In this document: piece by piece, positions 25,201 to 64,000 of the stretch
Layout of the letters: every line of letters starts with the position of its first letter
Position numbering within the stretch: position 1 is the stretch's first letter
Origin: Somniosus microcephalus
Lineage: Eukaryota
Reading direction: 5' to 3'
Assembly (NCBI GenBank): GCA_052327205.1
Contig: CM126215.1
Span: 2,108,001 to 2,172,000, forward strand
DNA: 64,000 nucleotides
The notes under the pieces: model-generated
Databases searched by the model: none
Told to the model about the DNA's origin: nothing
The model's input: only the letters and a program-made list of their open reading frames with translations
Made by a program: the position numbers and the translations under genes

Positions 25201-26651
25201 CGGGGATCGGCTACAGACCCTCCACAACGACCTCTGCCACCCAGGGGTCACGCGGCTGTTCCACTTCATAAAGTCCCGCAACTTACCCTACTCGATTGAG
25301 GAAGTTCGGTCTCTGACCAGGAACTGCCGCACTTGCGCTGAGTGCAAGCCTCGGTTCTACCACCCTGATAGAGCCCACTTAATCAAAGCTACACGGCCCT
25401 TTGAGCGGCTCAGCTTAGATTTCAAGGGCCCCCTCCCGTCCGTCGACCGCAATGTTTACTTCCTGAACATTGTGGACGAATACTCCCGGTTCCCATTCGC
25501 CTTCCCCTGCCCAGACATGACCAGCGCCACGGTCATTAAATGCCTCAACAGCCTGTTCTGCCTGTTCGGTATGCCGAGCTACATTCACACGGATAGGGGG
25601 GCGTCCTTCATGAGTGAAGAGCTACGCCAGTACATGCTGTCCAGGGGTATTGCCACGAGCCGTACCACCAGCTACAACCCCCGGGGTAACGGTCAAGTGG
25701 AGCGAGAGAACGGGACAGTATGGAAAGCAGTCACTCTAGCTCTAAGGACCAAGGGCCTCCCTATCTCCCGCTGGCAGGAAGTCCTCTCGGATGTGCTCCA
25801 TTCGATACGGTCGCTATTGTGTACTGCCACTAATGCCACGCCTCATGAACGAATGTTTAGCTTTCCCCGGAAATCCACCTCAGGCGTATCCATGCCGTCA
25901 TGGCTCTCCACCCCAGGTCCGGTATTCGTGCGAAGGCATGTGAGGGGCCATAAGACGGACCCTCTCGTGGAGCCAGTGCACCTACTCCACGCCAACCCCC
26001 AATACGCGTATGTCCGGCACGCCGACGGAAGGGAGGACACCGTGTCAATAAAAGACGTCGCCCCAGCCGGTAACGACAACAACCACGGCAATAGCAGCAG
26101 CAACGACCACAGCAACTCTTACCCACCCACTACTCTTTCATCACCCCCGGAAGAACATCGACCAACGGCACCCCCACCAACTACCCCTTCAACAACCCTG
26201 GCGGCACCCCCGGCAGAGACCCAGGAGGCCACCGGGGACACCCAGCCGACACCCGCGACACCACAACAGCCACGTCGGTCGCAGAGGACTACCAAACCCC
26301 CGAACAGACTAAATCTATAGAAGGGGTGAATGTGATGAAATATTCCATTCATCACTGCCTGTGACTGTGGTTGGTTTCAGGTTTCCCCTCACTATTGTAT
26401 TGCCTGTGACTGTGGTTGGTTTCAGGTTTCTCCTCACCATTGTATTGTATATTGGAATGTATGGAATGTGTTGTGTGTAGGGCTCCGCCCATACCTGGCC
26501 TCTATGTAAGCCAGCTCAGTCTGGCCTCATATCCAGTACTGCAGAGCTCCAGATGGAAGATACCTCTCTCCACTGCGTGTTATCTTCTAAGTTAATAAAA
26601 GCCTTGTTTTGTTCCGCCAACATCGAGTCTCGGGATTATTGAGGCACATCA
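22209..26651 (+). mobile_element. Full-length Gypsy-type LTR retrotransposon of a different lineage, no tRNA PBS
   Basis: 321-bp LTRs 22209-22529 and 26331-26651 (3 substitutions by eye); TSD CTGAC; PPT agaaggggtgaa; each LTR has an internal ~45-bp tandem duplication. Confidence 0.97.
22556..26320 (+). pseudogene. Gag-pol with a single in-frame TAG (24788-24790) between RT and RNase H
   Basis: Two CCHC knuckles, protease IDSG, RT YLDN, RNase H (DAS/EKE/TD/DALSR), integrase HHCC+DDE. ORFs 22487-24790 and 24806-26320 share one frame. Confidence 0.9.
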
Positions 26652-32005: not shown

Positions 32006-32341
32006 TAAAGATGTGGTGAATCCTAATTTGAGGTATAGATGTTCAGTCTGGATATTGCTTTCCCCAGCCGAGGTACCTTTAACCATGAAATCTACCAGCA
32101 GGGTCTAGTGTCACTGCTCATCCGGGAGGATAGTCCGTGATGGATCAGAATGGCTACATCCCTTTTACAAGAAGAGGAGGCGGATGCCACCCACTCAATC
32201 TCTGCGAAGACACTCGCTCTCCGTGAGGTGAGATTTTTGCAGGAGGGCAATTTGGCAACAACCAATATTCTTTAGCAGGGATCAGTTAGTTTTTCCTTTT
32301 TATACGATGGATGACCCCGTCTACGTGAAGAGACAGTCTTA

Positions 32342-33044
32342 GGGCTAAAAATTCAGTTTGGGGCGCCAAGCTCGCCTGGGCGCCGGAATTACCGCTGCGC
32401 GCGGAGCCACTTGTGCCATCGGGATATTCAGTTTCAGCGCCCCAAATGGAAGCCGGCCGCTAAACAAGGCTTTCGGCGCCCTGCTTGGGGCGCTGAAACT
32501 GAATATCGGCGCGCAAAGTGCCGCAGCGCCACCCGCTGCGGCACGGCAGGCTGCGGTACTGCAGGCCTTCCTCTCACTCTTAAGGGGGAGGTGCCTGCAA
32601 CAGCGCGATCCCCGCTCGCGAGTGCCGGCAAATGAGCCCGGCACCAAGGAGAAGTGCCGGGCTCTTGGGAAACAGCCGGCAATGCCGCGGGGCGGGGTGG
32701 GTGTAGGAGGCCGGGGACGGAGGTGCTGGCAGGCGGCCGCCGAAAAAGCGGCCGGCCGCACCTCCACCTTAACTCGCCCCACTACCGCCACAGGTAGGCC
32801 CCTGTGTACCGGTCGCTATTTGCGGCCGGCGCGGAAGAGGCGGGCGCGACCTAATATGGCGCTCGGGGCGGTAGCGGGGCGCTGCGCACACCGATGACGT
32901 CATCGGTGGCGGCGCAGCGCTACAGGCTAACGCCGCCATTAGCGCCCCGCTAAATATCGCGGTGGTTGTGGCCAGTGGCGCTAAAGCCTCTGAGTGGCCT
33001 CTTTGGGCGCAAACTGGTGGCGCAAGCAACTGAATTTCTAGGCC
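32342..33044. mobile_element. PIF/Harbinger-like MITE (CpG-rich)
   Basis: TIRs GGGCTAAAAATTCAG / CTGAATTTCTAGGCC; TSD TTA; related to 1462-2465. Confidence 0.85.
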
Positions 33045-35009: not shown

Positions 35010-37122
35010 GATTGTGAGCCACAGGAACACGCTGATTGTGAACCACAGGAACACACTGGTTGTGAAACCACAGGAACACGCTGATTGTGAAACCACAGGA
35101 ACACACTGGTTGTGAAACCACAGGAACACGCTGATTGTGAAACCACAGGAACACGCTGGTTGTGAAACCACAGGAACACGCTGATTGTGAAACCACAGGA
35201 ACACACTGGTTGTGAAACCACAGGAACACGCTGATTGTGAAACCACAGGAACACACTGGTTGTGAACCACAGGAACACGCTGCTTGTGAAACCACAGGAA
35301 CACGCTGATTGTGAAACCACAGGAACACACTGGTTGTGAACCACAGGAACACGCTGATTGTGAAACCACAGGAACACGCTGGTTGTGAAACCACAGGAAC
35401 ACGCTGATTGTGAAACCACAGGAACACACTGGTTGTGAAACCACAGGAACACGCTGATTGTGAAACCACAGGAACACGCTGGTTGTGAAACCACAGGAAC
35501 ACGGTGATTGTGAAACCACAGGAACACACTGGTTGTGAAACCACAGGAACATGCTGATTGTGAAACCACAGGAACACGCTGGTTGTGAAACCACAGGAAC
35601 ACGCTGGTTGTGAGCCACAGGAACACGCTGGTTGTGAGCCACAGGAACACGCTGGGTGTGAAACCACAGGAACACGCTGGTTGTGAGCCACAGGAACACG
35701 CTGATTGTGAAACCACAGGAACACGCTGATTGTGAGCCACAGGAACGCACTGGTTGTGAGCCACAGGAACACGCTGGTTGTGAGCCACAGGAACACGCTG
35801 GTTGTGAGCCACAGGAACACGCTGGTTGTGAGCCACAGGAACACGCTGGTTGTGAGCCACAGGAACACGCTGGTTGTGAGCCACAGGAACACGCTGGTTG
35901 TGAGCCACAGGAACACACTGGTTGTGAAACCACAGGAACACACTGGTTGTGAGCCACAGGAACACGCTGGTTGTGAGCCACAGGAAGACGCTGATTGTGA
36001 GCCACAGGAACACGCTGGTTGTGAGCCACAGGAACACGCTGGTTGTGAGCCACAGGAACACACTGGTTGTGAAACCACAGGAACACACTGGTTGTGAGCC
36101 ACAGGAACACGCTGATTGTGAGCCACAGGAACACGCTGGTTGTGAGCCACAGGAACACGCTGATTGTGAAACCGCAGGAACACACTGGTTGTGAAACCAC
36201 AGGAACACGCTGATTGTGAAACCACAGGAACACGCTGGTTGTGAAACCACAGGAACACGGTGATTGTGAAACCACAGGAACACACTGGTTGTGAAACCAC
36301 AGGAACATGCTGATTGTGAAACCACAGGAACACGCTGGTTGTGAAACCACAGGAACACGCTGGTTGTGAGCCACAGGAACACGCTGGTTGTGAGCCACAG
36401 GAACACGCTGGGTGTGAAACCACAGGAACACGCTGGTTGTGAGCCACAGGAACACGCTGATTGTGAAACCACAGGAACACGCTGATTGTGAGCCACAGGA
36501 ACGCACTGGTTGTGAGCCACAGGAACACGCTGGTTGTGAGCCACAGGAACACGCTGGTTGTGAGCCACAGGAACACACTGGTTGTGAGCCACAGGAACAC
36601 GCTGGTTGTGAGCCACAGGAACACGCTGGTTGTGAGCCACAGGAACACGCTGGTTGTGAGCCACAGGAACACGCTGGTTGTGAGCCACAGGAACACACTG
36701 GTTGTGAAACCACAGGAACACACCGGTTGTGAGCCACAGGAACACACTGGTTGTGAGCCACAGGAACACGCTGGTTGTGAGCCACAGGAACACACTGGTT
36801 GTGAAACCACAGGAACACACTGGTTGTGAGCCACAGGAACACGCTGGTTGTGAGCCACAGGAAGACGCTGATTGTGAGCCACAGGAACACGCTGGTTGTG
36901 AGCCACAGGAACACGCTGGTTGTGAGCCACAGGAACACACTGGTTGTGAAACCACAGGAACACACTGGTTGTGAGCCACAGGAACACGCTGATTGTGAGC
37001 CACAGGAACACGCTGGTTGTGAGCCACAGGAACACGCTGGTTGTGAGCCACAGGAACACACTGGTCGTGAAACCACAGGAACACACTGGTTGTGAGCCAC
37101 AGGAACACGCTGGTTGTGAAAC
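35010..37122. repeat. 24/25-bp minisatellite (~85 units) with higher-order duplication
   Basis: Unit gtga(g/aa)ccacaggaacac(g/a)ctg(g/a)tt; rare variants recur at 756-bp spacing. Confidence 0.97.
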
Positions 37123-39906: not shown

Positions 39907-40112
39907 GGAGACTGTACTCGTATCAAAGTGAGCTGCCAATGGCTGAGCCTGTGGCTCCTTCGATACTCGATCAAGATCATTCAGCAATTGAACATCTGGC
40001 AGGGTCAAAGGGAGTGGAAATCAAGGGGCAGAGCATTGTGACTGAATTACATTAATTTTCACTGAGGATGCCATTCTTAAAAGAAACGTTACCTAAATGA
40101 ATCTGTCATGTT

Positions 40113-43100
40113 TGTTGTGTATGTACCTTTAAGAGAATAACTGGTCTCAGACTGCAATACCGGCAGTGACCACCCCTGTATAAAAGGCGCTAGAGAGCCT
40201 CTGTTGGTTAGTTTCGTTTATGCCTTTCACCAGTAAAGACTTGTTTGTTTCTCTCCTGCTAGTCCGTGTCTCAATCATTCACGGACTTAACACTGGCGAC
40301 GAGTTAGAAAGAACTTACTTGCAACTCAGCAGCAGCTCCGACGACGTTGAAGGTCGGAAGAAGAAAAAAAAAAAAAATAGAGTCCATTGAAACTCGAGGA
40401 ACGGGCGTCGACCGTCAATCATCGGGTTCAAGGCTTTGCAGGAGCGACTTTCCAGAGCCAGGCTGGGTTCCTCGGTCCGTGGTTTCCCAGCTAATCGGGC
40501 TGGTGGCAGGTAGTGCTCTGATCCTTCCTGGGCTGCAACGGGGCCGGGCAGCGAGTCGGGAAGCAAGGAGAGAGAGAGAGGGTGGAGCATACAGGGCGCG
40601 GCCGGGGTTTCGAAGCTGGGCAGCGTTCGGACCTCAGAAGAGGGAAGGAAGTGTCCCAGAGGGTCCGCTCCACGACGGGAAAATAATAAAAGAAAAAGAA
40701 TACGCGCAAGAAACCGTGGAAAGCAGCGCTAACAACAGCGGGGAAGAAGGAAAAGCACGGGAGGCACCATTTTGTTAAATCAGAGAAGAAGGCAAAGCGC
40801 AGGAGGCGCCATTTTAGATTTGCAAGATGCCGAAGACTGGCTGTATCACTGCTTTTGATAATACATTAGAGGACTGGACCACGTATGTGGAAAGAGTCGA
40901 GGTATATTTCGAGGCAAATGAAATAGCGGAGGGGAAAAAGGCATCAATATTGCTAAACGTAATGGGCGCTAGAACGTACGGCCTATTGCGGGATCTGATT
41001 ACTCCAGCCAAACCGAAGGCGAAGAGTTTTAACAAAATTGTTGCTGTTCTACAGAAGCACTTAAACCCTGCACCGCTGTTGGTAGCAGAAAGATTTAAAT
41101 TCCACAGGAGAACTCAGCACAAAGATGAGAGCAATGCTGAGTATCTTACGGAACTACGCAAGCTATCAAAGCACTGCCAGTTCAGAGCAGGACTGGCAGA
41201 TACCCTACGGGACAAATTTGTCTGTGGACTCCTGAGTGAAGGAACACAGAAGAAGTTACTCGCAGAAAAAGAGCTGACGCTAGATAAGGCTTTCAGCGTG
41301 GCAGTATTATATGAAGCAGCAGCCAGGGGAGCTGCAGAAATTCAACAAAAACCACAGGAATACAGCACCCACGAAATGACACGGGGATTTGCAAAATGTT
41401 ATCGCTGCGGCAGAACTAACCATGACCAGAAGGACTGCTGGTCCAAAGACAAAATATGCAGACAATGCGGGAAGATTGGACACATTGCACGAGTTTGTAG
41501 GTCTGAGAAGAAGACCAGCAACAACATAAAGGCTACTAAGGAACCGTACAAGAAAGTACAAAAGATGACGGACAGTAGTTCCGAAGACCAGATGAGCGAT
41601 AGTGAATCCGAGAACAGGAGATTAAGCTGTCTCAAACTTCACAATGTAATCGCAAAAGAGGATCACCGAACCATTTGGGTCACCCTCACGATAGCAGGGT
41701 CCCAAGTTAAAATGGAATTGGATACAGGATCAGCGCTAACCGTCATGAATCGACGAGACTATGGGCGGCTATTTTCACACATACCCTTGAGAGAGACATC
41801 CATCGTCTTGACGACGTATACGGGGCAAAAAGTATACCCCAGAGGAAAAATAAGGGTGCCTGTCGAATACAATGGCAAGAAAATACGGAAATTGTATCTC
41901 TACATACTGCCAAATGGTGGACCACCGTTATTGGGACGGGAATGGATCAGGAAGATAAACTTAGATTGGCATTCCATTCATGCAATGACGGTGGACGGTA
42001 AAAAAGATGAAGACGTCACTCCTGGACGATTGTCAACAATCTTAGCTAACGCCAAAGAGGTATTTCAACAAGAACTGGGCACGCTTAAAGGCGTAACCGC
42101 CTCGTTAAAAATAGAAGAGAATGCAGTTCCCAAGTTTTTCAAAGCGAGACCGGTACCATATGCAATTCGTCCAGCCGGCGAGGCAGAGCTGGAGAATCTG
42201 GAGAAGGCGGGCGTGTTGTCTAAGGTCGACTGGAGCGAGTGGGCGACACCCATCGTTCCTGTCATGAAAAAAACGTTAAGCAATAAGTCCGGAGAGCCAA
42301 GGAAGATTCGCATCTGTGGGGATTTCAAGGTGACGGTGAACCCTGTCCTTCACACAGTACAATATCCTCTTCCAAGGATAGAAGACATCTTCGCCTCACT
42401 GTCTGGAGGGAAGCGTTTTACAAAAATTGACCTAGCACAAGCATATTTGCAGATGGAGGTTGAAGAGTCCTCTAGGAAGTATCTCACGATAAACACTCAC
42501 AAAGGTCTTTACCAATATCATCGATTGGTATTCGGAGTAGCATTGGCTCCGGCGATATGGCAAAGAGCGATGGAACAAGTCCTGCAAGGGATTCCGGGGA
42601 CTCAGTGTTACTCGGACGACATCCTTGTAACAGGTGAAGATGACAGTGAACACCTTAACAACCTAGAACAGGTGCTCACTAGACTACGGGAACATGGGCT
42701 GCGAGCCAACCGCCCCAAGTGCGAATTTTTAAAGAAACAGATATCGTATTGTGGCCACGTGATTGATGAAGAGGGGTTACATAAGTCCCCTGACAAAATT
42801 GAAGCGGTTGTTAAGGCCCCAGCGCCTGAAAATGTGTCGCAACTGAGGTCATTCCTCGGGTTGGTGAATTACTATCATAAGTTTTTGCCGAATTTGTCGA
42901 CAATTCTGCATCCACTGAACGCCCTGCTACGAACGGGGGTAGCATGGAAATGGAGCGATGATTGTAAATGTGCTTTTCAGAAGAGTAAGGACTTAATCAC
43001 TTCAAAGGAAGTATTGGCTCACTACAACCCAGCACTGCCAATCAGGCTGGCGTGTGATGCGTCTCCCTACGGCATTGGGGCGGTACTGTCACATAAATTC

Positions 43101-45072
43101 CTTGATGGTTTGGAGAGGCCGATAGCTTTTGCGTCACGCTCGTTAACTTCTGCCGAGCGTAACTACGCCCAGATTGACAGAGAGGCCCTCAGCCTAGTGT
43201 GGGGGGTGAAGAAGTTCAATCACTATCTGCACGGTCAAAAATTTACTCTACTAACCGATCATCAACCTCTTGTCTCCATTTTCAACCCTCAGAAGGGCGT
43301 ACCGATAATGACAGCACAACGGCTGCAGAGATGGTCCCTTTTCCTAGGGGCACACCAATATGACATCGAGTACAGGGGAACTAAACAGCATGGAAATGCT
43401 GATGGATTGTCACGTCTACCGTTGCCGACGGTGGAAGAAGAAGACCTTGCAGTGGATCCAATGGAGTTATTCCACTCGACCATAGTCGAATGTCTCCCTG
43501 TGACGAATGCACACATAGAAAAGGAAACACGGAATGACCCGACACTATCACGGGTCTATGATTTAACGGTGAAGGGATGGCCAGCACATGGCGAACCACT
43601 GCTGCCAGCATTTTCGTCAAGAAGAGAACAGCTGTCAGTGTGCAGAGGAACCTTGATGTGTGGATCCAGAGTAGTAATTCCACCTAAGTTGATGGATAGA
43701 GTGCTCAATGAGCTTCATGAGGGTCATCTGGGTGGGGTAAAAATGAAGAGCTTAGCCAGAGCGTTTGTGTGGTGGCCGGGAATCGATAGAGAAATCGAAG
43801 AGATGACCAAGAGCTGTGCAGGATGCCAGAAGGTCCAAAACGCCCCACCACAAGCTCCTCTGCATCCATGGGAGTGGCCCTCATCTCCATGGCAAAGGGT
43901 GCACATTGATTTTGCTGGTCCCTTCATGGACTCGATGTTTTTAATTGCGGTGGATGCACATTCAAAGTGGCCAGAGGTAATAAAAATGTCCTCAACCACC
44001 ACGGAAAAAACTATCGCAGTTTTACGAACCATATTCGCCAGGAATGGGCTGCCTGAACAGATTTGCTCTGACAATGGACCACAGTTTGTGTCTGAAGATT
44101 TCCGGAGGTTCTTAAAGAACAATGGTGTTAAGCATTATACATCTGCCCCATATCATCCAGCCACTAATGGATTGGCCGAGAGGTTTGTCCAAACATTCAA
44201 GAAGGCTATCAAGGCAATGTGTAATGAAGATATACCCCTACAACACAAGGTGGACAACTTCTTGTTTGCCTACCGGAATGCGACACATGCGGTTACCAAC
44301 CAAACTCCAGCCATGATGTTCTTCAATCGAAGACTACGATGCCGCTTGGATTTGGTTAAGCCAAACGTCCGAAGAGATGTGGCGAACAGGCAGTTTCAGA
44401 ATATGAATGAAAGGCCGACCAGGAGTTTTAAGATAGGTCAACCAGTTTTGGCCCGGGACTGCCGCACTGAGAAATGGCAGCCAGGAACGATTTGTACACG
44501 ACAAGGACCTCTCATGTATACCGTGGACGTTGGGGAGAGCATTGTAAGACGCCATGCTGACCAGATTCTAGAGTCACTGGAAAACGTCAACTCCACACCA
44601 CGATCTGATACACCTGGTAATGAAATCGACGTTTCAATTGCAGCTACCGCAGAACCGGTAATATTGGAAGCAGATGAACCAAACAACGACATTGATTTCG
44701 ACTCAACATTGCCAGAAGAACCTGATACTCCAAAGAGGCGTTATCCCGACAGAATCAGGAAGCCTCCTCAAAGACTGAACTTATAATTGCTTAAACTTAG
44801 CCAATGTATCTAGCAACAGTAATTGTGATTGTAATTCGTTATCATTAGTGTTAAATGAATGTTATGTACTGTTTATCTAAAAGGGGAGGAATTGTTGTGT
44901 ATGTACCTTTAAGAGAATAACTGGTCTCAGACTGCAATACCGGCAGTGACCGCCCCTGTATAAAAGACGCTAGAGAGCCTCTGTTGGTTAGTTTCGTTTA
45001 TGCCTTTCACCAGTAAAGACTTGTTTGTTTCTCTCCTGCTAGTCCGTGTCTCAATCATTCACGGACTTAACA
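40113..45072 (+). mobile_element. Full-length young Gypsy (Mag-like) LTR retrotransposon
   Basis: 180-bp LTRs 40113-40292 and 44893-45072 (2 substitutions); TSD ATGTT; PBS TGGCGACGAG at 40294; PPT aaaaggggaggaat. Confidence 0.98.
40827..44786 (+). CDS. Uninterrupted Gag-Pol polyprotein, 1319 aa
   Basis: Two CCHC knuckles, protease LDTG, RT (YSDD variant), RNase H, integrase HHCC/DDE; colinear with 14436-18390. Confidence 0.95.
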   Translation: MPKTGCITAFDNTLEDWTTYVERVEVYFEANEIAEGKKASILLNVMGARTYGLLRDLITPAKPKAKSFNKIVAVLQKHLNPAPLLVAERFKFHRRTQHKDESNAEYLTELRKLSKHCQFRAGLADTLRDKFVCGLLSEGTQKKLLAEKELTLDKAFSVAVLYEAAARGAAEIQQKPQEYSTHEMTRGFAKCYRCGRTNHDQKDCWSKDKICRQCGKIGHIARVCRSEKKTSNNIKATKEPYKKVQKMTDSSSEDQMSDSESENRRLSCLKLHNVIAKEDHRTIWVTLTIAGSQVKMELDTGSALTVMNRRDYGRLFSHIPLRETSIVLTTYTGQKVYPRGKIRVPVEYNGKKIRKLYLYILPNGGPPLLGREWIRKINLDWHSIHAMTVDGKKDEDVTPGRLSTILANAKEVFQQELGTLKGVTASLKIEENAVPKFFKARPVPYAIRPAGEAELENLEKAGVLSKVDWSEWATPIVPVMKKTLSNKSGEPRKIRICGDFKVTVNPVLHTVQYPLPRIEDIFASLSGGKRFTKIDLAQAYLQMEVEESSRKYLTINTHKGLYQYHRLVFGVALAPAIWQRAMEQVLQGIPGTQCYSDDILVTGEDDSEHLNNLEQVLTRLREHGLRANRPKCEFLKKQISYCGHVIDEEGLHKSPDKIEAVVKAPAPENVSQLRSFLGLVNYYHKFLPNLSTILHPLNALLRTGVAWKWSDDCKCAFQKSKDLITSKEVLAHYNPALPIRLACDASPYGIGAVLSHKFLDGLERPIAFASRSLTSAERNYAQIDREALSLVWGVKKFNHYLHGQKFTLLTDHQPLVSIFNPQKGVPIMTAQRLQRWSLFLGAHQYDIEYRGTKQHGNADGLSRLPLPTVEEEDLAVDPMELFHSTIVECLPVTNAHIEKETRNDPTLSRVYDLTVKGWPAHGEPLLPAFSSRREQLSVCRGTLMCGSRVVIPPKLMDRVLNELHEGHLGGVKMKSLARAFVWWPGIDREIEEMTKSCAGCQKVQNAPPQAPLHPWEWPSSPWQRVHIDFAGPFMDSMFLIAVDAHSKWPEVIKMSSTTTEKTIAVLRTIFARNGLPEQICSDNGPQFVSEDFRRFLKNNGVKHYTSAPYHPATNGLAERFVQTFKKAIKAMCNEDIPLQHKVDNFLFAYRNATHAVTNQTPAMMFFNRRLRCRLDLVKPNVRRDVANRQFQNMNERPTRSFKIGQPVLARDCRTEKWQPGTICTRQGPLMYTVDVGESIVRRHADQILESLENVNSTPRSDTPGNEIDVSIAATAEPVILEADEPNNDIDFDSTLPEEPDTPKRRYPDRIRKPPQRLNL

Positions 45073-46336
45073 ATGTTTATATCTGTGCATTTTGAAGATG
45101 TTTTAACAAAAGTCTTCCCAACAAATATAATGGACATGATATGTACCCAAGAACCTAGATGTCGCCCTGCCTCTGAGCTGAAGTAAATGTGGTTATCCCA
45201 GTTTTGTAAGTGACTGCCAAAATTGAACATGTTCTGAAGACAAGCCTTCGATTTGCATTTTGTGCTTAAATTGTCCCTTTTCCCTTTCTACCCCCTTTCC
45301 CTTCCTTCCCTTTTCCCTTTTGACCCCTTTTTTCCCCCTCTTTCCCCATCCACCACATTTTGCCAGCAGTTTTTTAAGCTGTATGCTAAGGAATATGATC
45401 CTAATTTTGCATCATTTGTCAGTTTCTCCTTTCGATATATCAGGTTCCAGAGGATCGAGGAACAAAGTGGCAAATGCTGGAACTGCAGCAGGTCAGTCAG
45501 CACTGGAAAGGGGTGAGGCAGGTTAACGATGATCTGAAGTTTCCTAGGGGGGGCAGAGGGAGGGAGAATGTGAATGTTATTAATTACCTGTTTTAAAACC
45601 TGTTACAATGAACAAAAAGGCAAGATGTTGAAAGTTTGTCAGTTAACTTGAATCTTAATGCACTGCCCCCCACTCTGTACAGATACTGTTAAATGCACTG
45701 CCCCCCACTCTGTACAGATACAGTCTACAGTTAAATTATTTAGGAGTTTGAATTAAGCAATTTAAATAAAACAGCACAGGAGGCTTTTTTTTACACAAAT
45801 TCAATTCAAGTTAGCATAATGAAAATGAAGCAACTGTGAATGAAGACTGGACTGTACAGATATTTCTACAATGACGGGACAGTTTGTTAAGAAGCTGAGG
45901 CACCAATTTCAAACGAGCTGAATTGTTGGTTTGTTTTTAAAAGCGTGCGATATTACGCAAATTATGAAGATGATCAATGAGCTGTGTGATTGCTTGCCAT
46001 CAAATCCTTTGGAAAACTGGTTTGGTTGGAAGGGAACAGTGCTGGAAATAGCAATAGTTGTACAGTGGTAAAAAAAAATATTTATCAGAGATGATGCCAA
46101 TCATTTGGGTTCAAAGTTAAACTATCATGGATTTTATTGTACCAGTGCGTGAACCAAAACTGAATGGTAATTAAGCAATATTTTTGTATGGTTTATGTGA
46201 CCAGTTTGATTCCCAGCTCAGTACCCAGCTCCTTGGTCCTGACTGACTATAAAGAGTTGAATTTTCTGTTTGTGCGCTCCTGCTGGGGAAACGCACATCA
46301 GGAAATGTCACCAGAGCCTCATCAAACACACAGACT

Positions 46337-53269: not shown

Positions 53270-54520
53270 CGTAGTCAAAAAGGTGAGTTTTAAGAGGGTT
53301 GTAATAAGGTGAGGGAGGCAGAAGGCTTTAGGGAGGGAATTCAAGTGCGTGGGGCTTAAGTGGTTGAAGGCACAGCCACCAATGGTATGTGCAAGGGGGG
53401 GATGTGCAAGAGGCCAGAGTCAGAGGAACGGAGAAGTTGGAGGGCGTTACAGAGATGGGGAAGGGTGAGGAACATAGGGACAGGAGGAGGCCATTTAGCT
53501 CCTTGAGCCTGTTCCGTCATTCAATGAGATCATGGCTGACCTGTGACCTAACTCCATATACCTGCTTTTGCCCCATACCCCTTAATACCTTTGGTTAACA
53601 AAATCTATCAGTCTCAGATTGAAAATTAACAATTGACCCAACATCAACTGCTATTTGCAGAAGAGTTCCAAACCTCTCCCACTCTGTGTGTAGAAGTGTT
53701 TCCTAACTTCACCCCTGAAAGGTCTGGCTCTAATTTTTAGGCAATGCCCCCAGTCCTAGATTCCCCAACCTGCGGAAATAGTTTATCTCTATCTACCCTA
53801 TCCGTTCCACTTACTATCTTGAAAACTTTGATCAGATCACCCCTTCACCTTCTAAATTCCAGGGAATACAACCCTAGTTTGTGTAATCTCTCCTCGTAAT
53901 TTAACCCTTAAGAGTCCAGGTATCATTCTGGTAAATCTGCACTGTCCTCCCAAGGCAATGTATCCTACCTGAGGTGTGGTGCCCAGAACTGAACACAATA
54001 CTCCAGGTGTGGTCTAACCAGGGTTTGTATAGCTGCAGCATAACTTCTACAGGAACGGATTTAAACACAAGGATGAAAATTGAAAATGTTGGGAGTCCAG
54101 GAGCCAATGCAGGTCAACAAGGAGAGGGGTGATGGGTGAACAGGACTGGTGAGTGAGAGGATACAGGCAGCAGAGTTTGGGATGGATTTAAGTTTAGAGA
54201 TCATGGAGCATGGGAGGTCGGCCAGGAGAGCATTGGCATTGTCGAGTCTGGAGGTGACAAAAGCCTGGGTGAGGATTTCAGCAGTGGCTGGGCTGGAGCG
54301 GGGGAAGGGGGGCAGAGCACAGGCGATGTCACTGAGGTGGAACTAAGCAGTCTTTATGATGGAGCGGAAATGGCGTCGGGAGCGCAGCTCAAAGCAGAAC
54401 AGAGAGGTTGCGATCAGTCTGGTCAGGCAGAGGAATAGAATCGGTGGCTAGGGTACGGAGTTTGCGGACGAGGGCTGAAGACAATGGCTGTTGATCTGAA
54501 TAGTTTGGTTCAATAATTAT
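53270..54520 (-). mobile_element. Old L2 fragment interrupted by a CR1 fragment (53470-54050)
   Basis: 53270-53470 plus 54050-54520 resemble 19900-21300; the middle resembles CR1 3' ends in minus orientation. Confidence 0.65.
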
Positions 54521-55287
54521 CTTGGTTGACCCTTGAAAAATAGAGACTTGTGCAGGGTCCCATACCCCAGCAAAAACCAGAGGCTTCAGGGGGAAGGAAC
54601 ACACTCACCCCATAACCTTTATTCAAATGAGTACGGTGCAGGATTGTTCTACACATAAATCGATGTATAATTACAGTGCAGGTTTCCTGTGACATTGAAA
54701 TGTTTCTCTATGTCACAGATTAAACTGACTACAAGTAGCAGGAGGTGAGGTTCAATCCAGACACAACACAGGAGTTCTGTTATTTATAAAATGCACTGTG
54801 CAGATTTTATCTGTTTATGTTAACAGTTCATCTCATTACACAGAAGAAATTTGACAGTAAAAGTTTATTTTGAGATTTATTGTAAACCAAGTCAAAATGA
54901 GCCTCCAATTACAATCGTAACTTTACATCAAATTCCACACCAGCTACTTGGTGTCCGGCCCTTGCAGACACCCAGTGAATCACAAATGAACATGTTTGAG
55001 CGCCAGGATCACGCAGGATATTCTTAATCTGCTCCACAGGTGATCATTCAAATGAACGAGGTTCAACAAACAAAACTACAGTGAAGTCAGCTGGAAAACT
55101 CGAACATTTTCACTCTCTGCCCATCTGGATTTAAAGACTAAATTCAGGTTTACACTGTTCACCTGAAAACAAAAGCATAAAAGTGTTAGAAGGACATTTA
55201 TTGTGGGGAGGGAAACTAACATTTAAACATTGCTAAAAGGGGGAGAAAAGTAACCGAATTAAAAGCAACTCCATCTGGGGAAAGATC

Positions 55288-56087
55288 TTATCGACAACCA
55301 CACTCATCCACCACCATGTCTTCGTAATGTCTCAAAACCACATTGTCATTGTTATCGTAATAGAGCATGGAAATAGGCGAGAGTTTAATGGGGACACAGC
55401 AGGGCTGGGGAGTGTGGCCAGGGTCGGTGGCGTGCACCAGTGTTTGCAGAATGGCGTGGTTGGTGCCGTTCAGGCTCTCGCTCAGGGGGTAAGGGCACTC
55501 CCCGTGGCAATAGTTGGCCATGTAGCTCTGGGGGGCGATGATCCAGTGTTGCCAGCCCACGTCCTTGAACTGGATGTGGAGCCTCCTCCGTTTGCAGACC
55601 CGGCTGAATGCGAGCGGCAGCTGAAAGGAGCTCCTCTTCCTCCTGGACGCTTTGCATTTCTCCCGATTCAGGGTCACCACCAACAGGGAGACGCGCAGAT
55701 CCCGGGCAATCCGTGCACAAGCTGGGCTCGGCTCCTGGGGACCCTCCGCCCAGGCGCTGCCCATTTCCAGCATTGCCCCCAGGTTGCTGGACTGGTGTCT
55801 CCAGTACCTGGAGATCTGAGTCAGGTTGAAGTAAAGGGAGCTGTGCACAGACTGGAAGGACTGCCAGGCGATGAGTTGCTGCTTGGAGCTGGGGGTCTCA
55901 CCCACCGTCCAGATGGACAGGGTGCAGGTTGCTGCTGCCCCAGGGAGCGGGTAGGGGTCCCCGAGGAGGGTGAGCTCCAGCTGGGCCAGGGTCAGCTCCT
56001 CCACTTCTTCCAGCACCGACAGGTTGAAGTAGAGTCGCTTCCGCACACACAGCCGAGGCTGGGATCCCAGCCCAGGAATTGGGCTAC
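55288..56087 (-). CDS. Vg1/GDF1/GDF3-family TGF-beta ligand, exon 2 (prodomain end, furin site, mature domain)
   Basis: Acceptor ttttgccag|GT; RRKR site; 7-Cys knot ending [17 protein letters not shown]; PxLLVVTLN-like prodomain motif (VSLLVVTLN). Confidence 0.96.
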
Positions 56088-56159
56088 CTGGCAAAAGAGA
56101 AGGTCAAAGAGTAACCATCAGAACAACTGGGCAATGGGACAGGTCAATACAGCCCAGGG

Positions 56160-57484
56160 CTCCCAGACTGAGCACCCCCCAGGAAAGGAGGGCCCCAGAC
56201 TGACCACCCCCCAGGAAAGGAGGCCCCAGACTGACCACCCCCCAGGAAAGGAGGGCCCAGACTGACCACCCCCCAGGAAAGGAGGGCCCCAGACTGACCA
56301 CCCCCCAGGAAAGGGGGCCCCAGACTGACCACCCCCCAGGAAAGGAGGCCCCCAGACTGACCACCCCCCAGGAAAGGGGGGCCCCAAACTGACCACCCCC
56401 CAGGAAAGGAGGGCCCCAGACTGACCACCCCCCAGGAAAGGAGGGCCCCAGACTGACCACCCCCCAGGAAAGGAGGCCCCAGACTGACCACCCCCCAGGA
56501 AAGAAGGCCCCAGACTGACCACCCCCCAGGAAAGGAGGCCCCAGACTGGCCACCCCCCAGGAAAGGAGGCCCCCAGACTGACCACCCCCCAGGAAAGGAG
56601 GGCCCAGACTGACCACCCCCCAAGAAAGGAGGCCCCAGACTGACCACCCCCCAGGAAAGGGGGGCCCCAGACTGACCACCCCCAGGAAAGGAGGGCCCAG
56701 ACTGACCACCCCCCAAGAAAGGAGGCCCCAGACTGACCACCCCCCAGGAAAGGGGCCCCCAGACTGACCACCCCCCAGGAAAGGGGGGCCCCAGACTGAC
56801 CACCCCCCAGGAAAGGGGGCCCCAGACTGACCACCCCCAGGAAAGGAGGGCCCAGACTGACCACCCCCCAGGAAAGGAGGCCCCAGACTGACCACCCCCC
56901 AGGAAAGGAGGGCCCAGACTGAGCACCCCCCAGGAAAGGAGGCCCCAGACTGACCACCCCCCAGGAAAGGAGGCCCCAGACTGACCACCCCCCAGGAAAG
57001 GAGGCCCCAGACTGACCACCCCCCAGGAAAGGAGGCCCCAGACTGACCACCCCCCAGGAAAGGAGGGCCCAGACTGACCACCCCCCAGGAAAGGGGGCCC
57101 CAGACTGACCACCCCCCAGGAAAGGGGGCCCCAGACTGACCACCCCCCCAGGAAAGGGGGCCCCAGACTGACCACCCCCCAGGAAAGGGGGCCACAGACT
57201 GACCACCCCCCAGGAAAGGAGGGCCCCAGACTGACCACCCCCCAGGAAAGGGGGCCCCAGACTGACCACCCCCCAGGAAAGGGGGCCCCAAACTGACCAC
57301 CCCCCAGGAAAGGGGGCCCCAGACTGACCACCCCCCAGGAAAGAGGGCCCCAGACTGACCACCCCCCAGGAAAGGAGGGCCCCAGACTGACCACCCCCCA
57401 GGAAAGGAGGGCCCCAGACTGACCACCCCCCAGGAAAGGAGGGCCCCAGACTGACCACCCCCCAGGAAAGGAGGGCCCCAGGAA
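56160..57484. repeat. 31-33-bp minisatellite (~41 copies) in the Vg1 intron
   Basis: Unit ccccagactgaccaccccccaggaaagg(a/g)gg; G-rich on the gene's sense strand. Confidence 0.97.
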
Positions 57485-58902
57485 AGTGAGGCCCCCAAAT
57501 TCCACCCTCCCAATAGAGGACCAGTTAGACAACAATTAAAGTCCCGAACGGATTTACAAATCATCTGAACTCCTCTCCGACCAATTGCACCCCGAGCGTC
57601 CCGCCGGTTGTACAGGACAGGAGAGCTGCGGCTCCTTGAAGGGTTTCAGCTGCCATTATTACAGTATTACATGGAATGTACAGCACAGAAACAGGCCATT
57701 TGGCTCCATTCTGAAGTTCATGCTCCACTCGAGCCTCCTCCCACCCTGCTTCATCTCACACTAGCAACGTATCCTTGTTTTCCTTTCTCCCTCATGTGCT
57801 TATCTCACTTCCCCTTAAAGCAGGCGGACCATAAGTCCCTGTTTTCCGGAGGTAGTGTGTCCCCGGGCAAACAACGTCCCTGCAAGAGTGCTCGATTCAG
57901 GAAACTTGCCCCTGAATAGAGCCAAATTCATTGGTCCGCTGGTCAGGAGTTGGATTTTAATTTTATTTTTGGATAAACTGGAAAATTTCAATCTCTGCCT
58001 TTTAAACACGAATGTACAGAAATCCGGTTCTCATCCGGTTCACGCCCGGTTTGAGCTCAGGAACGGATTCCAGGAGCCGGCTGAACGGAGGCGACAATGG
58101 CGGCCCCGCCTTCCCACAATGCAGCGCGGTGGAGAAAAGGCCCCATCGAGAGTCGGGCCGCGCTGCACTCTGCGGGATTGAGTCACATGACCCCGTGTTT
58201 CGGCCAATAGTGACTGGCCGGAGGGCGGAACCTTTAAAATGCGCGGGCGAAGCCGAGGGCACGGCGAGAGTCGGTGGGCGAGTGGATTTACTTTACCTCA
58301 GAGATCAGCATGGTGCATTGTGTTTTTTTTAATGAATAAAGCAAGCTCTAAATTCTCCCACCGGGAAGAGATTTCTGAAACCGACTGAGACACAGGGTGT
58401 TTCATACCTTATATGGAAAATCTCAGTCTGTTTGGAACAGATTTGAAACTGGGAAATTACAAGTTCGGGTATTGGGGATGGGCACAGACACGACAGCACT
58501 GTTACCAGAACACACACAAGATTCCAGATTCGGTGTAAGGTGAAAACGGCCTCGTCTCTACACGTAGTCCATTGGCAGAAACAACAAAGTCGTCTTGAAA
58601 CGCGTCCTGGCTACTCAGCTGTGATCCTACCCTGTGTGTCCCAGGATTCGCTTTAGAAAATATTTTAAATGTGTCCATACTCTTCGCCTCAACCACTCCC
58701 TGTGGTAGCGAGTTCCACATTCTCACCACTCTCTGGGTAAAGAGTCCCCCCTCCCCCAGCGCTCCCCCTCCCCCAGGGCTCCCCACACTCCCCCTCCCCA
58801 CGATCCCACCTCCTTCCCCCCCCAGGGCTCCCCCTCTCCACGATCCCACCTCCCCCTCCCCCAGGGCTCCCCACACTCCCACATTAGGAAAGGGTCACTT
58901 AC

Positions 58903-59188
58903 CCAGATCGGGCAGGTGACGGAGAGTGTCTCCATCCACCCCCAGCTCATCCACCCTGCACACGTCATCTCCAGGGTCTCCCTGGGTGAGGGGCCTGGTC
59001 CTCCTCTGGAACATCTTCCATAACCGAACCGGGACAGGCCTGGGATCGGAGGGCTGGGGCCTGCTCGATAAACCCAGTGCTTTTAAAAAGGCCTTTTCCT
59101 GAACCTGGGGCCCCTGCAGCTCACACAGACTGACGGGGCAAAAGGAAATCACTGCTAAACATGTAGCGAGCTGAGCCAGAGGAGCCAT
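58903..59188 (-). CDS. Vg1/GDF1/GDF3-family ligand, exon 1 (signal peptide and prodomain start)
   Basis: ATG at 59188; hydrophobic leader; FLKALGLS..PVP..LWKMF..CRVDELGVDGD..LPDLG; phase-1 donor G|gtaagt joins exon 2 in frame (361 aa total). Confidence 0.95.
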
Positions 59189-59289
59189 CGCTGGCCCCGG
59201 CACCAAGAGATGAGGAGTAATAATGGGCAGTGAGAGGCCTGGGCCTTGGCCCAGCTCCTGTTACAGCCTGGGATCAGCCTCAACAACCC

Positions 59290-59605
59290 TGCTGATTGGT
59301 GATTAAAGCTTTCTCTCTCTCTCTCTCTCTCTGCAATTACCATTTCAATAGCGAGCTCCCGGGGGCAGCCTCACATTCTGGGGGCGGGGGATTGGGAAGC
59401 AGGGAGTCTCCCCCTCCCTCAACCAGATGGGATCCTGACTGCTGGGTGTCCCTGAGATTGAATGTCTGAAATCAGCTTCCAACACACATCAATTCTCACC
59501 TGTTGATTGGCTTTAGTGGCACTTCAAAGGGGCTGAATGATGATGTTTGCATCTGAAAGGAACTCTCTATCTACCCCAGACAGTTGCTGATGGTCACTCT
59601 TAGCC
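59290..59605 (-). promoter_or_regulatory. Putative proximal promoter of the Vg1-family gene (left arm of the inverted repeat)
   Basis: CCAAT motifs (~59294, 59391, 59506), GC box 59381-59389, (GA)n tract, TCF/LEF-like CTTTGAA 59523-59529; directly upstream of the ATG. Confidence 0.6.
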
Positions 59606-59732
59606 TCCTCTTAAACTCAGACACCTATTGATTACTGTGGAGCCTCACAGATTGAAGTGTGTATTCCTGTAAATCTGGAGAAACAGACAGCAGAAATTGG
59701 GCTGTCAGCAGCAATATAGAATCAAACTTTGG

Positions 59733-62700
59733 TCGCCGCCTCCATGGGGTCGGAGTCGCCATAAACAATGAGCGAGTTGAACATCTCAGAGACTCCCCTT
59801 GTGGAATAAATGAATGCCTCATGACTCTACGGCTCCCCCCAGCCCGGAACCAGTGCGTTACGGCCATCAGTACGTACGCCCCAACACTAGAAGCCACAGA
59901 CGAGACCAAAGGAGAATTCTACTCCAGCCTCGTACAATCCCTGTCCCGAGTCCCAACGGGCGACAAGCTGATCCTCCTTGGCGACTTTGACGCCACAGTT
60001 GGAAAGGACACAGACCTCTGGGGAGGTGTGATCGGCAGAGAGGGGGTAGGGAAAGTCAACTCCAACGGTACCCTCCTCCTGTCGAAATGCTTAGAACATG
60101 GCCTTGTCATAACCAACACCTTGTTCCGTCAGAGAGACAAGTACAAGGTTTCATGGCAACACCCTCGCTCCAAGCACTGGCATCTGCTGGACTATGTCAT
60201 CGTCCGAGCGAGGGACCGCAAGGACGTCCGCATCACCCGCGCCATGACGGGAGCTGATGACTGCTGGACAGACCACCGCCTAATCCACTCTGTCATCTCC
60301 ATCAATGTAACCTCAAATCAGCGGCGGCAACAGAAACAATGCCGCAGGAAAATTAACGCTGGAGCACTCAAAGACCCTGCTAAGAAAGCCCTATTCAGCC
60401 TGCGCCTCACAAACAATCTGATGACTCCCAGTGATTCAGAGACACAGAGTGTCCACAGCGCCTGGTCTGCATTCAAGACCTCCATAATCGGCACCTGTGA
60501 AGAGACGCTCGGCCACTCGACCAGGAAACACTAAGACTGGTCCAACGAGAATGACCAAAAGATCCAGGAGCTAACAAGCCGCAAGCGCAAGGCATTCCTG
60601 ATCTGGAAACAGCAACAGAACTCGAGAGCAAGAAAGCAGTTCTACAGACGCCTGAAGGCAGAGGTCCAACAAAAAACTCGTGACCTAAAGAACAGATGGT
60701 GGGTGGAGAAAGTGCAGGAGATCCAGCAGCTAGCCGACAACCACGACGTGCGTGGATTCTTTAGCGCAGTCAAGACCATCTACAGCCCAAGCACCCAAGG
60801 TCCTACCCCACTGCCAGCCAAGAACGGAGAGGTACTCATCAAGGACAGGGAGGCAGTCAGTGCCCGCTGGAAGGAGCATTTCAAAGATCTCCTTAACCGA
60901 AACTCTGTCTTCAATGCGAGTGTCCTCAACTCCATCCCGCAGCATGCTACCCGCCACCATCTCAGCACAACCCCAGCCCAGCATGAGGTTGAAAAGGCCA
61001 TCCGACAACTGAAGAACAACAAGGCCTCAGGAGCAGATGGAATCCCTGCTGAGGCACTAAAGCATGGTGGAGAAACACCACTGGCGCGAATTCATGAACT
61101 CATTTCTCTTATCTGGAAGGAGGAGAGCATGCCAGGGGATCTCAGAGACGCCGTAATTGTGACCATCTTCAGGAAAGGTGACAAGTCCGATTGCAGTAAT
61201 TACAGGGGAGTTTCCCTGCTGTCTGCCACAGGGAAAGTCATCGCAAGAATCCTCCTCAATCGCCTTTTCCCAGTGGCCGAAGAGCTCCTCCCAAAGCCGC
61301 AATGCGGATTCCGCCCACTAAGGGGCACAATGGACATGATCTTCGCCACGCGTCAATTACAAGAGAAATGCAGGGAACAGCACCAACCGCTGTACATGGC
61401 CGCCTTTGACCTCACAAAGGTCTTCGACGCGGTTAACCGTGAGGTATTATGGAGTGTCCTCCTCAAATTCGGCTGCCCTCAGAAGTTTGTCACCATCCTC
61501 CGCCTGCTTCACGATGACATGCAAGCCGTGATCCTGACCAACGGTTCCACCACAGACCCAATTCACATACGAACCGGGGTCAAGCAAGGCTGTGTCATCG
61601 CACCAACGCTCTTCTCGATCTTCCTTGCTGCAATGCTCCATCTCACCCTCAGTAAGTTCCCCGCTGGAGTGGAGCTAATTTACAGAACAAACGGGAAACT
61701 GTTCAACCTCCGTCGCCTCCAGTCCAGATCCAAGGTCATCTCATCCTCTGTCGTCGAATTACAGTATGCAGACGACGCTTGCGTCTGCGCACACTCGGAG
61801 GTCGAACTCCAAACCATCGTCAACACCTTCACCGAAGCGTACGAGAGCATGGGCCTTACACTAAACATCCATAAGACAAAGGTCCTCTACCAACCTGCCC
61901 CCGCCACACAGTACTGCCCCCCAATTATCAAAATCCACGAGAAGGCCTTGGACAACGTAGACCACTTTCCATACCTCGGAAGCCTACTGTCAACAAGGGC
62001 AGACAAAGTCCAACACCACCTTCAGTGTGCCAGTGCAGCCTTCGGTCGCCTGAGGAAGAGAGTGTTTGAAGACCAGGACCTCAAACCCGGCACTGAGCTC
62101 ATGGTCTACAGAGCAGCAGTGATATCCGCCCTGCTGTATGCTTCAGAGACATGGACCATATACAGCAGGCACCTCAAAGCACTGGAGAGGTACCACCAAT
62201 GCTGCCTCCGCAAGATCCTGCAAATCCATTGGCAGGATAGGCGCACCAACGTCAGTGTTCTCGCTCAGGCCAGCATCCCCAGCATCGAAGCTTTGACCAC
62301 ACTCAATCAGCTCCGATGGGCGGGTCACATTGTCCGCATGCCCAATACGAGACTCCCAAAACAAGTGCTCTACTTGGAGCTCCGACACAGCAAGAGAGCC
62401 CCAGGTGGGAAGAGGAAACGCTTCAAGGACACCCTCAAAGCCTCCTTGAAAAAGTGCAACATCCCCACTGATACCTGGGAATCCCTGGCCCAAGACCGCA
62501 CAAAGTGGAGGAGAAGCAGCCAGGAAGGCGCCGAACACCTCGAGTCTCTTCGCCGGGAGTAAGCGGAAGCCAAGCGCAAGGAGCGCACGTCAACCCAAGC
62601 ACCCCACCCACCCACCCCTTCAACCACCGTCTGCCCCACCTGTGACAGAGACTGTAGGTCCCGCATTGGGCTCATCAGTCACCCGAGAACTCATTTTTAG

Positions 62701-62747
62701 TGTGGAAGCAAGTCATCCTCGGTTCCGAGGGACTGCCTAAGAAGAAG
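59733..62747 (+). mobile_element. 5'-truncated RTE-clade (BovB-like) LINE
   Basis: EN (YAPT, LGDF, TDH) and RT (GVKQG, YADD) in one frame with stops at 60532 and 62560; aagaagaag tail; 15-bp TSD agaatcaaactttgg. Confidence 0.95.
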
Positions 62748-62764
62748 AGAATCAAACTTTGGAC

Positions 62765-63630
62765 CCAAGAAAGATCGATCAGAGAAATTTCTAAATGGTG
62801 AGAAGCTGGGAACTGTGGAGGAGCTGAGAAATTGAGGGGCCCAAATACAGAAATCAGTAAAAACTAGTGGACATAGAAACATAGACGATAGGAGCAGGAG
62901 TTGGCCATTCGGCCCCTCGAGCCTGTTCTGCCATTCAATGCGATCATGGCTGATCATCCAAATTCAGTACCCTGTCCCTGCCTTCTCCCCATATCCCTTG
63001 ATCCCTGTAGCCTTAAGAAATATATCCAACTCCTTCTTGAATATATAGACAGGTAGAAAAAAAAATTGTTGGCCTTTATCCCAAGGGGACTTGAATTCAA
63101 AGGGGTGGAGGTGATGTGACAGTTGTATAAATCTCTGGTCAGACCCCACCTGGACACTGTGTTCAGTTCTGGGCCCCGCCCCTCAGGAAGGGTATATCGG
63201 CCTCGGAGGGGGGGGCAGCACCGAGTCACCAGAATCACACCAGGGCTACAAGGGTTAAATTACGAGGACAGGTTGCAGAGACTGGGCTTGTGTTCCCTCG
63301 AGTTTAGAAGATTAAGGGGTGATCTGATCGAGGTGTTTAAGATGATTAAAGGAGTTGATCGGGTGGAGAGAGAGAAACTATTTCCTCTGGTGGGGGGAGT
63401 CCAGAACAAGGGGGCAGAACCTTAAAATTAGAGCCAGGCCGTTCAGGGGTGATGTCAGGAAGCACTTCTTCACACAAAGGGTGCTGGAAATCTGGAACTC
63501 CCTCCCCCAAAAAACTGTTGAAAATTTCAAAACTGAGATTGATAGGTTTTTGTTGGGTGAGGAACCAAGGCGGGAGGATGGAGATGATACAGATCAGCTA
63601 TGATCTAATTAAATGGCAGAAAGGGCTCGA
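62765..63630 (+). mobile_element. CR1 fragment with a nested inverted CR1 tail (62871-63050)
   Basis: ORF 63123-63425: YKSLVRPHL..SLEFRRLRGDLIEVFKM. Confidence 0.8.
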
Positions 63631-63715
63631 CTCTCCTCCAAATAAACTTGATTGGAGACAATATCAATGTAAAGTTTGGGGGTTTGAAGTTTGTGAGGCC
63701 CCAGTTCTAGTCGGT

Positions 63716-64000
63716 GCTAACAGTGCCCATCAGCAACTGTCTGGGGTAGATAGAGAGTTCCTTTCAGATGCAAACATCATCATTCAGCCCCTTTGAAGTG
63801 CCACTAAAGACAATCAACAGGTGAGAATTGATGTGTGTTGGAAGCTGATTTCAGACATTCAATCTCAGGGGCACCCAGCAGTCAGGATGCCATCTGGTTG
63901 AGGGAGGGGGGGGACTCCCTGCTTCCCAATCCCCCGCCCCCAAAATGTGAGGCTGCCCCCGGGAGCTCGCTATTGAAATGGTAATTGCAGAGTGAGAGAG
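63716..64000 (+). repeat. Inverted copy of the Vg1 upstream region 59321-59605, running off the window end
   Basis: Reverse complement aligns with about 6 substitutions and 1 indel over the ~273-bp core, by manual comparison. Confidence 0.95.

Follow-up and report, generated by a model that had tools for sequence, protein, structure and literature searches.

Introduction

In cartilaginous fishes, the Nodal-pathway TGF-beta ligand Lefty is encoded by a linked pair of genes, the LeftyA/LeftyB bi-gene cluster, whose copies group by lineage, a pattern read as gene conversion or repeated duplication (PMC12344233). The palindromes of mammalian X and Y chromosomes have inverted, gene-bearing arms that convert each other and diverge less within species than between species, and their spacers, reported to range from 77 bp to 358 kb, are unstable and poorly conserved (PMC8327919). 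Lineage-specific duplication of a single ancestral GDF1/3 gene is described for Vg1 and derriere in anurans and for GDF1 and GDF3 in mammals (PMC6134012), and amphioxus has a duplicated Gdf1/3 gene that lies head to head with its partner across ≈4 kb (PMC10794066). Here, we describe a locus that resembles each of these systems in part: a Vg1 (GDF1/3) gene in a 64,000-nucleotide stretch of DNA from the shark Somniosus microcephalus (contig CM126215.1, positions 2,108,001 to 2,172,000; hereafter the window), the 5′ flank of which is repeated in inverted orientation at the window end. We lean toward the reading, drawn from sequence comparison, that an old shark Vg1 duplication lies head to head in this genome and has been homogenized by gene conversion.

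Vg1/GDF1/3 is the heterodimer partner needed by Nodal (10.1101/483974), and its expression is left-restricted in the catshark diencephalon (PMC8569936). The gene has been stated to be single-copy in chondrichthyans (PMC6134012; 10.1101/483974); the chondrichthyan in the synteny analysis was the elephant fish (10.1101/483974). We found no report of two shark Vg1 copies in the literature searched, with subscription journals and supplements lying outside the search. The available portions of the paper on the Lefty pairs do not mention a shark Vg1 pair alongside them (PMC12344233), and those of a preprint on shark sex chromosomes do not mention Vg1. A shark Vg1 pair appears to be unreported, while the kind of system, a linked duplicate under concerted evolution, is known. 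Sharks probably carry an overlooked Vg1 pair whose copies keep overwriting each other.

An Inverted Repeat of the Vg1 5′ Flank

The left and right arms of the inverted repeat (Table 1) are 96.8% identical over 285 columns (E = 1e-132; self-BLAST and alignment of the window), with eight substitutions and one single-base gap, and the match reaches base 64000. An earlier note, made from the letters of this DNA alone, had reported an inverted match of ≈97% running to the last base, with its left arm 133 bp upstream of the Vg1 ATG, and had not recognized the arm as a transposable element. All three observations were borne out: the ATG lies at 59188, the inner end of the arm is at 59604 and not 59605, and a transposable element is contradicted by the presence of only two copies of the arm in the window (word size 7), where common repeats recur, and by its continuity with conserved Vg1 5′ flank, described below. 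The last ≈13 matched bases are a (GA)n microsatellite, preceded by 272 columns of unique sequence, so the continuation of the match to the window end rests partly on simple sequence. The divergence between the arms is 2.9% (Jukes–Cantor; 95% interval of the raw fraction, 1.2–5.5%). At the inner edge, identity fades over ≈25 bp: 83 identical columns are followed by 11 columns with 2 mismatches and then by 13 columns with 6. In an ungapped scan, the edge frays to 59617/63703, with 7 of 13 extra bases matching (counted by eye). A mirror copy of the flank that separates the left arm from the ATG would fall at ≈64001–64132, which places the predicted ATG of the twin near 64133, shifted by any difference in microsatellite length.

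The arm continues into sequence shared with another shark order. In a tblastn search, residues 1–34 of a Heptranchias model (P0121) matched 59343–59242 with 30 of 34 residues identical, and residues 35–90 ran on into exon 1. The start of this match, 23 bp into the left arm, recurs in the right arm at 63978. Vg1 5′ sequence conserved across shark orders thus makes up at least the outer end of the arm. Of 15 chondrichthyan models compared by their N-termini, P0121 alone extended into the arm, and two from rays gave matches in the flank outside it. Within the left arm, we found matches to a CCAAT box (59395), a GC box (59388) and TCF-like (59530), FoxH1-like (59508) and Sox-Oct-like (59349) motifs, which serve as leads only, as the patterns were scanned without a shuffle control. 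All motif types are present in both arms, and the right arm differs at one CCAAT (59510/63810).

The (GA)n tract lies between an upstream ATG at 59343 and the main ATG at 59188. In the window gene, the upstream frame overlaps the main start and is out of frame with it; in one Heptranchias model, the two are in frame; in the right arm, the upstream frame stops at codon 6 (63978–63995). If transcribed, this difference could give the two copies unlike translational control.

The visible gene itself is a GDF1/3 gene in structure: two coding exons on the minus strand, joined by a GT–AG splice into 361 codons with no internal stop, and a seven-cysteine TGF-beta mature domain (Pfam TGF_beta, E = 2e-38, in exon 2) behind an RXXR site. 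The best match to exon 2 was Heptranchias DVR-1-like (91%), followed by Heterodontus (90%); among the 120 of 643 matches listed, none was identical, and the named top matches were elasmobranch DVR-1/derriere-like proteins at 79–91%. No second TGF-beta-like sequence was found in the window, including the 54 kb downstream of the gene.

Twin Vg1 Models in Other Sharks

Clusters were looked up for 10 of the 11 top chondrichthyan matches and for 10 further proteins, covering 12 shark and 9 batoid species. Two Vg1 models were present in 6 of the 12 sharks (four firm and two weaker cases) versus none of the 9 rays and skates (Fisher p = 0.017), a contrast that overstates independence because four of the six twin species are closely related. 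For the skate cluster, the absence of twins refers to the 15 of 28 members listed, including all 4 that were named. In the firm cases, two distinct models lie on one chromosome-length contig: Heptranchias perlo (XP_067848366/7), Hemiscyllium ocellatum (XP_060689230/1), Chiloscyllium punctatum (XP_072440496/7) and C. plagiosum (XP_043557483, XP_043557432). The first three pairs have consecutive accessions without isoform labels and are presumably adjacent genes, as we take RefSeq practice to imply. One chromosomal model of C. plagiosum (P0173) is truncated, and a third model, on a 5.4-kb scaffold, shares its inserted residue. The weaker case of Pristiophorus japonicus consists of two UniRef entries that come without contig data, and the weakest, Stegostoma tigrinum, of a single sequence entered twice, with consecutive accessions and different names. 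The twin species span Orectolobiformes, Hexanchiformes and Pristiophoriformes, and both shark superorders. Callorhinchus, with two models from different sources, and Scyliorhinus canicula, whose RefSeq model and cDNA differ by one residue, were not counted.

Within species, the twins differ by 0–6 residues (98–100% protein identity). The substitutions are scattered along the pairs, at 2 of 303, 3 of 364, 6 of 364 and 3 of 246 positions, with one substitution and one indel in 133 for the chromosomal pair of C. plagiosum; named isoforms of five batoid species had none in the shared exon. Such scattered differences indicate that the pairs are not splice variants of one locus. The Hemiscyllium reference, assumed to be the source of its RefSeq models, is a trio-binned, purged paternal haplotype (PMC10587355), which argues against the twins being alleles. 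Both twins are full-length in Hemiscyllium and C. punctatum (364 amino acids each), and exon 2 is complete in both Heptranchias models.

Searches for longer and shorter forms of the protein revealed no second copy in the single-model sharks: the search for longer forms gave 4 matches, none of them chondrichthyan, and that for shorter forms gave 14, with one named shark exon-1 fragment, both of which are weak negatives. Rhincodon did not appear among the matches of the Vg1 protein searches and cluster look-ups. The models of Cetorhinus, Carcharodon and Scyliorhinus torazame (P0003, P0122 and P0123), one per species, are named “DVR-1-like”, as are most twins, and ray models are named “DVR-1”; these names may hint at a second copy that is unannotated or collapsed.

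Relationships among the Twins

A tree was built from 30 proteins, in which C. plagiosum was represented by its full chromosomal model and the unplaced one, and from which P0173, P0005, P0008 and surplus isoforms were left out. The window Vg1 fell inside the elasmobranch clade with 100/100 support, which together with the exon 2 matches points to a shark; the tree, which had no BMP2 outgroup, did not assign it to a shark order. Four of the five twin pairs formed species clades (support 100/99, 100/100, 97/90 and 97/89), while the Hemiscyllium pair was unresolved. Over 246 shared columns, twins differ by 1–3 residues, compared to 34–35 between Heptranchias and Pristiophorus and 52–62 between the orectolobiforms and both of these.

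Alternative groupings were compared with the approximately unbiased (AU) test on 27 rows, after dropping three bony-fish rows, with groups that had been named after the first tree was seen. A clade made of one copy per species cost 420 log-likelihood units and was rejected (p-AU = 1.5e-36). Within Hemiscylliidae, one cross-species grouping was rejected (p = 0.010) and one was not (p-AU = 0.054); a prodomain L at window position 198 is common to the second copies of Hemiscyllium and C. punctatum, a weak signal from one site. The AU rejection implies that the twins are not old paralogues that evolved apart. Judged from the sequences, they would be either young, having arisen about six times, or old and homogenized. 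Twins in three shark orders would demand about six separate duplications if there were no conversion. Parsimony appears to favor old, homogenized twins, at least within Orectolobiformes. A shared origin of galeomorph and squalomorph twins is less certain, since a single copy is what Heterodontus, two lamniforms and three carcharhiniforms each have in the look-ups.

The Spacer and the Visible Gene

The features of the locus are listed in Table 1.

Table 1. Features at the Vg1 end of the window.
Feature	Position	Strand	Description
Probable Vg1 3′ untranslated region	54623–55287	−	AATAAA at 55202, 54881, 54869 and 54623 (5′ base on − strand)
Vg1 exon 2, coding part	55288–56087	−	Rest of prodomain, RRKR site, 114-residue mature domain with 7 Cys, stop
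Intron 1 (GT..AG)	56088–58902	−	Contains minisatellite and CpG-rich island
Vg1 exon 1, coding part	58903–59188	−	ATG at 59188
5′ flank/leader between arm and ATG	59189–59320	−	Conserved in Heptranchias; single-copy within window
Left arm	59321–59604	−	Putative proximal promoter; self-alignment
Single-copy spacer DNA, left	59605–59717		113 bp, no other match in window
Non-LTR (long terminal repeat) retrotransposon	59718–62762	+	Reverse transcriptase, near-intact open reading frame with one stop, 15-bp target-site duplication
Nested 3′ fragments of long interspersed nuclear elements (LINEs)	62763–63630	both	Repeat matches within window
Single-copy spacer DNA, right	63631–63715		85 bp, no other match in window
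Right arm	63716–64000	+	Inverted copy of putative promoter, ended by window edge

The spacer between the arms is ≈4.1 kb long (≈1.1 kb without the retrotransposon) and ≈95% retroelement. The retrotransposon has a reverse transcriptase domain (Pfam RVT_1, E = 2.5e-36) in a frame with one premature stop at 60532 and is flanked by the target-site duplication at 59718–59732 and 62748–62762, and 62790–63630 resembles LINE-type repeats at other sites in the window. The earlier note had described the spacer as an RTE element with a clean 15-bp duplication plus CR1 fragments, leaving ≈200 bp of unique DNA; the duplication, the LINE fragments and the extent of the single-copy DNA were recovered, and the subclass names, RTE-like and CR1-like, are tentative. 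The spacer frames tested encode reverse transcriptase and no transposase, and Rfam had no match in 54000–64000. The sole run of N in the window is at 3237–3508, so there is none in the spacer.

Intron 1 contains a CpG-rich island at 57800–58450 (observed/expected 0.91) that has no other copy in the window, with CCAAT (58204), GGGCGG (58223) and TGAGTCA (58179) on the plus strand and CCAAT on the minus strand; it may act as a promoter, either intronic or antisense. An alternative first exon is hinted at by ray isoforms that start at exon 2. A 31-bp minisatellite, repeated 42 times and strongly strand-asymmetric, occupies 56156–57481 of the same intron; its presence and length in a twin would mark conversion. 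A scan of 16 window frames revealed no neighboring gene. In non-tetrapods, the reported synteny of GDF1/3 includes BMP2, FERMT1, LRRN4 and CRLS1 (PMC6134012). CERS1 was dropped as a candidate neighbor, since its linkage is described as tetrapod-specific (PMC6134012).

Proposed Origin and Maintenance of a Probable Pair

Under the reading that we favor, the window would end at the center of an inverted Vg1 duplication. Transcription of the visible copy would run leftwards and that of a second full copy rightwards, starting from the right arm, and each would have a proximal promoter of ≈285 bp. The duplication would be old, dating from early shark evolution or from separate events in two shark lineages. 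In the manner established for mammalian palindromes (PMC8327919), the arms would pair within one chromosome or chromatid during double-strand-break repair, and non-crossover gene conversion would keep both genes near-identical within each species. The spacer, lying outside the paired region, would gather retroelements and set the edge of homogenization. Weaker conversion at the arm edge would explain the 96.8% identity and frayed border of the promoter compared to the 98–100% of the twin proteins, and the instability of palindrome spacers elsewhere fits a spacer composed mostly of retroelements. Since only ≈200 bp of single-copy DNA lies between the copies, little shared intergenic enhancer is possible, and equal promoters with equal proteins point to dosage or back-up; the likely effect would be that two redundant copies double the supply of a single Vg1 ligand for Nodal–Vg1 heterodimers. 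We infer the conversion, the dosage function and the shared origin and orientation across sharks, as well as the twin in the window genome; that an intact twin lies beyond base 64000 is, in our estimation, quite likely.

The arm divergence bears on the age of the pair. In the epaulette shark, nucleotide diversity (pi) is 0.002 and the mutation rate 7e-10 per generation. By these figures, 2.9% would not be a small divergence for a shark, nor would it suggest a young one. Dating the arms to ≈2e7 generations with the epaulette rate was rejected as too rate-dependent. The earlier note had proposed a second Vg1 gene in a divergent pair that was either recent or homogenized. Occurrence in both superorders, grouping by species and the arm divergence favor the old, homogenized option, with young independent duplications still possible. 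The second near-identical gene gains indirect support from the twin models of other sharks; in the window genome, it would lie past 64000 and could be truncated or pseudogenized.

Several points weigh against this reading, in addition to the relatedness of the twin species. The twin gene would fall outside the window, and the link between the twins of other sharks and the repeat seen here is one that we infer. Heterodontus, Carcharodon, Cetorhinus, Mustelus and two Scyliorhinus have one RefSeq model each, and to accommodate one-model sharks (6 of 12), losses, assembly collapse or separate origins are needed. Some twin models are damaged or cut: that of C. plagiosum noted above, and one from Pristiophorus (P0010) that lacks a start Met and four mature-domain residues, including two cysteines, and is either a decaying copy or a model error. 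The left and right single-copy parts of the spacer show no residual homology above that of shuffled sequences (74–190 of 500 shuffles reached the score). The arm identity, taken over the innermost 285 columns, is below the >99% of X/Y palindromes. Finally, species-wise grouping fits young duplications equally well.

The last point is the strength of the main alternative, in which a full inverted twin would have arisen within this lineage and the twins of other sharks would be separate young duplications at a duplication-prone locus, without long-term conversion. This predicts the observed grouping, is at ease with the half of the sharks that have one copy, and has precedent in the independent duplications of GDF1/3 described in frogs, mammals and amphioxus (PMC6134012; PMC10794066). 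However, it calls for about six shark events, three of them in one family (Hemiscylliidae), and none in 9 batoids, and the shared L at position 198, with its cross-species pairing at p-AU 0.054, speaks weakly against it; we consider it unlikely. More doubtful still is a duplication of the promoter only, or of the promoter and exon 1, or a twin decayed to a pseudogene, such that the right arm would drive nothing or a non-coding transcript. The window shows nothing beyond 64000, the right arm has its altered CCAAT and a stop in the upstream-ATG frame, and the twin models of other sharks include truncated ones and ones with deletions, but the remaining motif matches are kept in both arms, and Hemiscyllium, C. 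punctatum and Heptranchias have the complete sequences described above.

We regard an assembly artefact, either a fold-back read chimera or a second haplotype set beside the first, as very improbable. Near-identical duplicates are a known assembly error, and some copies do sit on small scaffolds (the 5.4-kb one of C. plagiosum and a 4.6-kb one with an exon-1 fragment of C. punctatum). Fold-backs, however, generally give near-100% arms and little spacer, whereas these arms differ at nine places, and the 4.1 kb between them are not mirrored, follow a biological order and contain an intact target-site duplication and no N. Eight substitutions in 284 bases are likewise improbable for alleles (p = 1.6e-7 at pi = 0.002 and 0.009 at pi = 0.01, with pi taken from another shark). 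The least probable explanation, even in a repeat-rich window, has Vg1 flanked by chance by a dispersed repeat, or by a DNA transposon with the arm as its terminal inverted repeat. Terminal inverted repeats of that kind, including those of miniature inverted-repeat transposable elements (MITEs), are multi-copy and accompanied by a transposase or an outer target-site duplication; the arm falls short on copy number in the window and on the spacer frames scanned, and it passes unbroken into a Vg1 5′ region that is shared with another shark order.

A stronger form of the old, homogenized pair can be put forward tentatively. The galeomorph–squalomorph split dates to >200 million years ago. A head-to-head Vg1 pair might have existed since before that split and been kept near-identical in every lineage by arm-to-arm conversion, with one-copy sharks representing losses or collapsed assemblies. 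If so, it would rank among the oldest known gene palindromes and would probably be autosomal. It would also be a third vertebrate route of GDF1/3 duplication, with a fixed double dose in place of divergence. Both a Nodal activator (Vg1) and an inhibitor (Lefty) would then be conversion-linked duplicates, suggesting selection on dosage balance.

Comparison with Known Systems

As in a bi-gene cluster, linked paralogues are found in several related species (same-contig pairs in four sharks, weaker cases in two more) and group by species, not by locus, in four of five pairs and in the AU test. In contrast, the Lefty pairs, which rays also have, group once each for sharks, rays and chimaeras, and the two copies are 60 kb apart, one of them nested inside Sde2 (PMC12344233). 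The Vg1 twins were seen only in sharks and, in the genome studied here, are predicted to lie ≈4.9 kb apart, head to head. The visible 285 bp of arm are inverted around a spacer that is within the size range of those of mammalian X/Y palindromes. The arms of the latter are 8–140 kb long and up to 99.99% identical, and lie on sex chromosomes with mostly testis-biased genes (PMC8327919), whereas the arm here flanks an early-patterning ligand. We do not class the arm pair as an X/Y-type palindrome, although it may work like one.

The anuran and mammalian paralogues have long diverged, in tandem in frogs and after translocation in mammals (PMC6134012), unlike the shark twins. In amphioxus, the Gdf1/3-like gene is partnered with Lefty, and the DNA between the two serves both as an enhancer (PMC10794066). 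At the shark locus, a second Vg1 is the predicted partner, and retroelements make up nearly all of the spacer, so each copy must use its own arm or distant enhancers. A shark pair would contradict the stated gene count for a core axis-patterning ligand. It would add a vertebrate GDF1/3 duplication of a different kind from those of frogs and mammals, where the copies are diverged ligands, and would extend the conversion pattern of shark Lefty to its pathway partner. In practical terms, work with model sharks such as the epaulette and bamboo sharks must take two copies into account in probe design, knock-outs and read mapping.

Other Repeats in the Window

An LTR retrotransposon at 22205–26651 has 325-bp LTRs that are 98.8% identical and encodes protease, reverse transcriptase, RNase H and integrase, with one stop between two frames. 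A 184-bp direct repeat (40112–40295 and 44892–45075; 98.4%) flanks a long LINE-like frame (40818–44786). An element at 32341–33044, rich in GC and CpG, is MITE-like by eye; its inverted ends are imperfect, with self-matches at 32423–32507. Further tandem arrays are located at 293–1266, 20222–21056 and 35012–37119.

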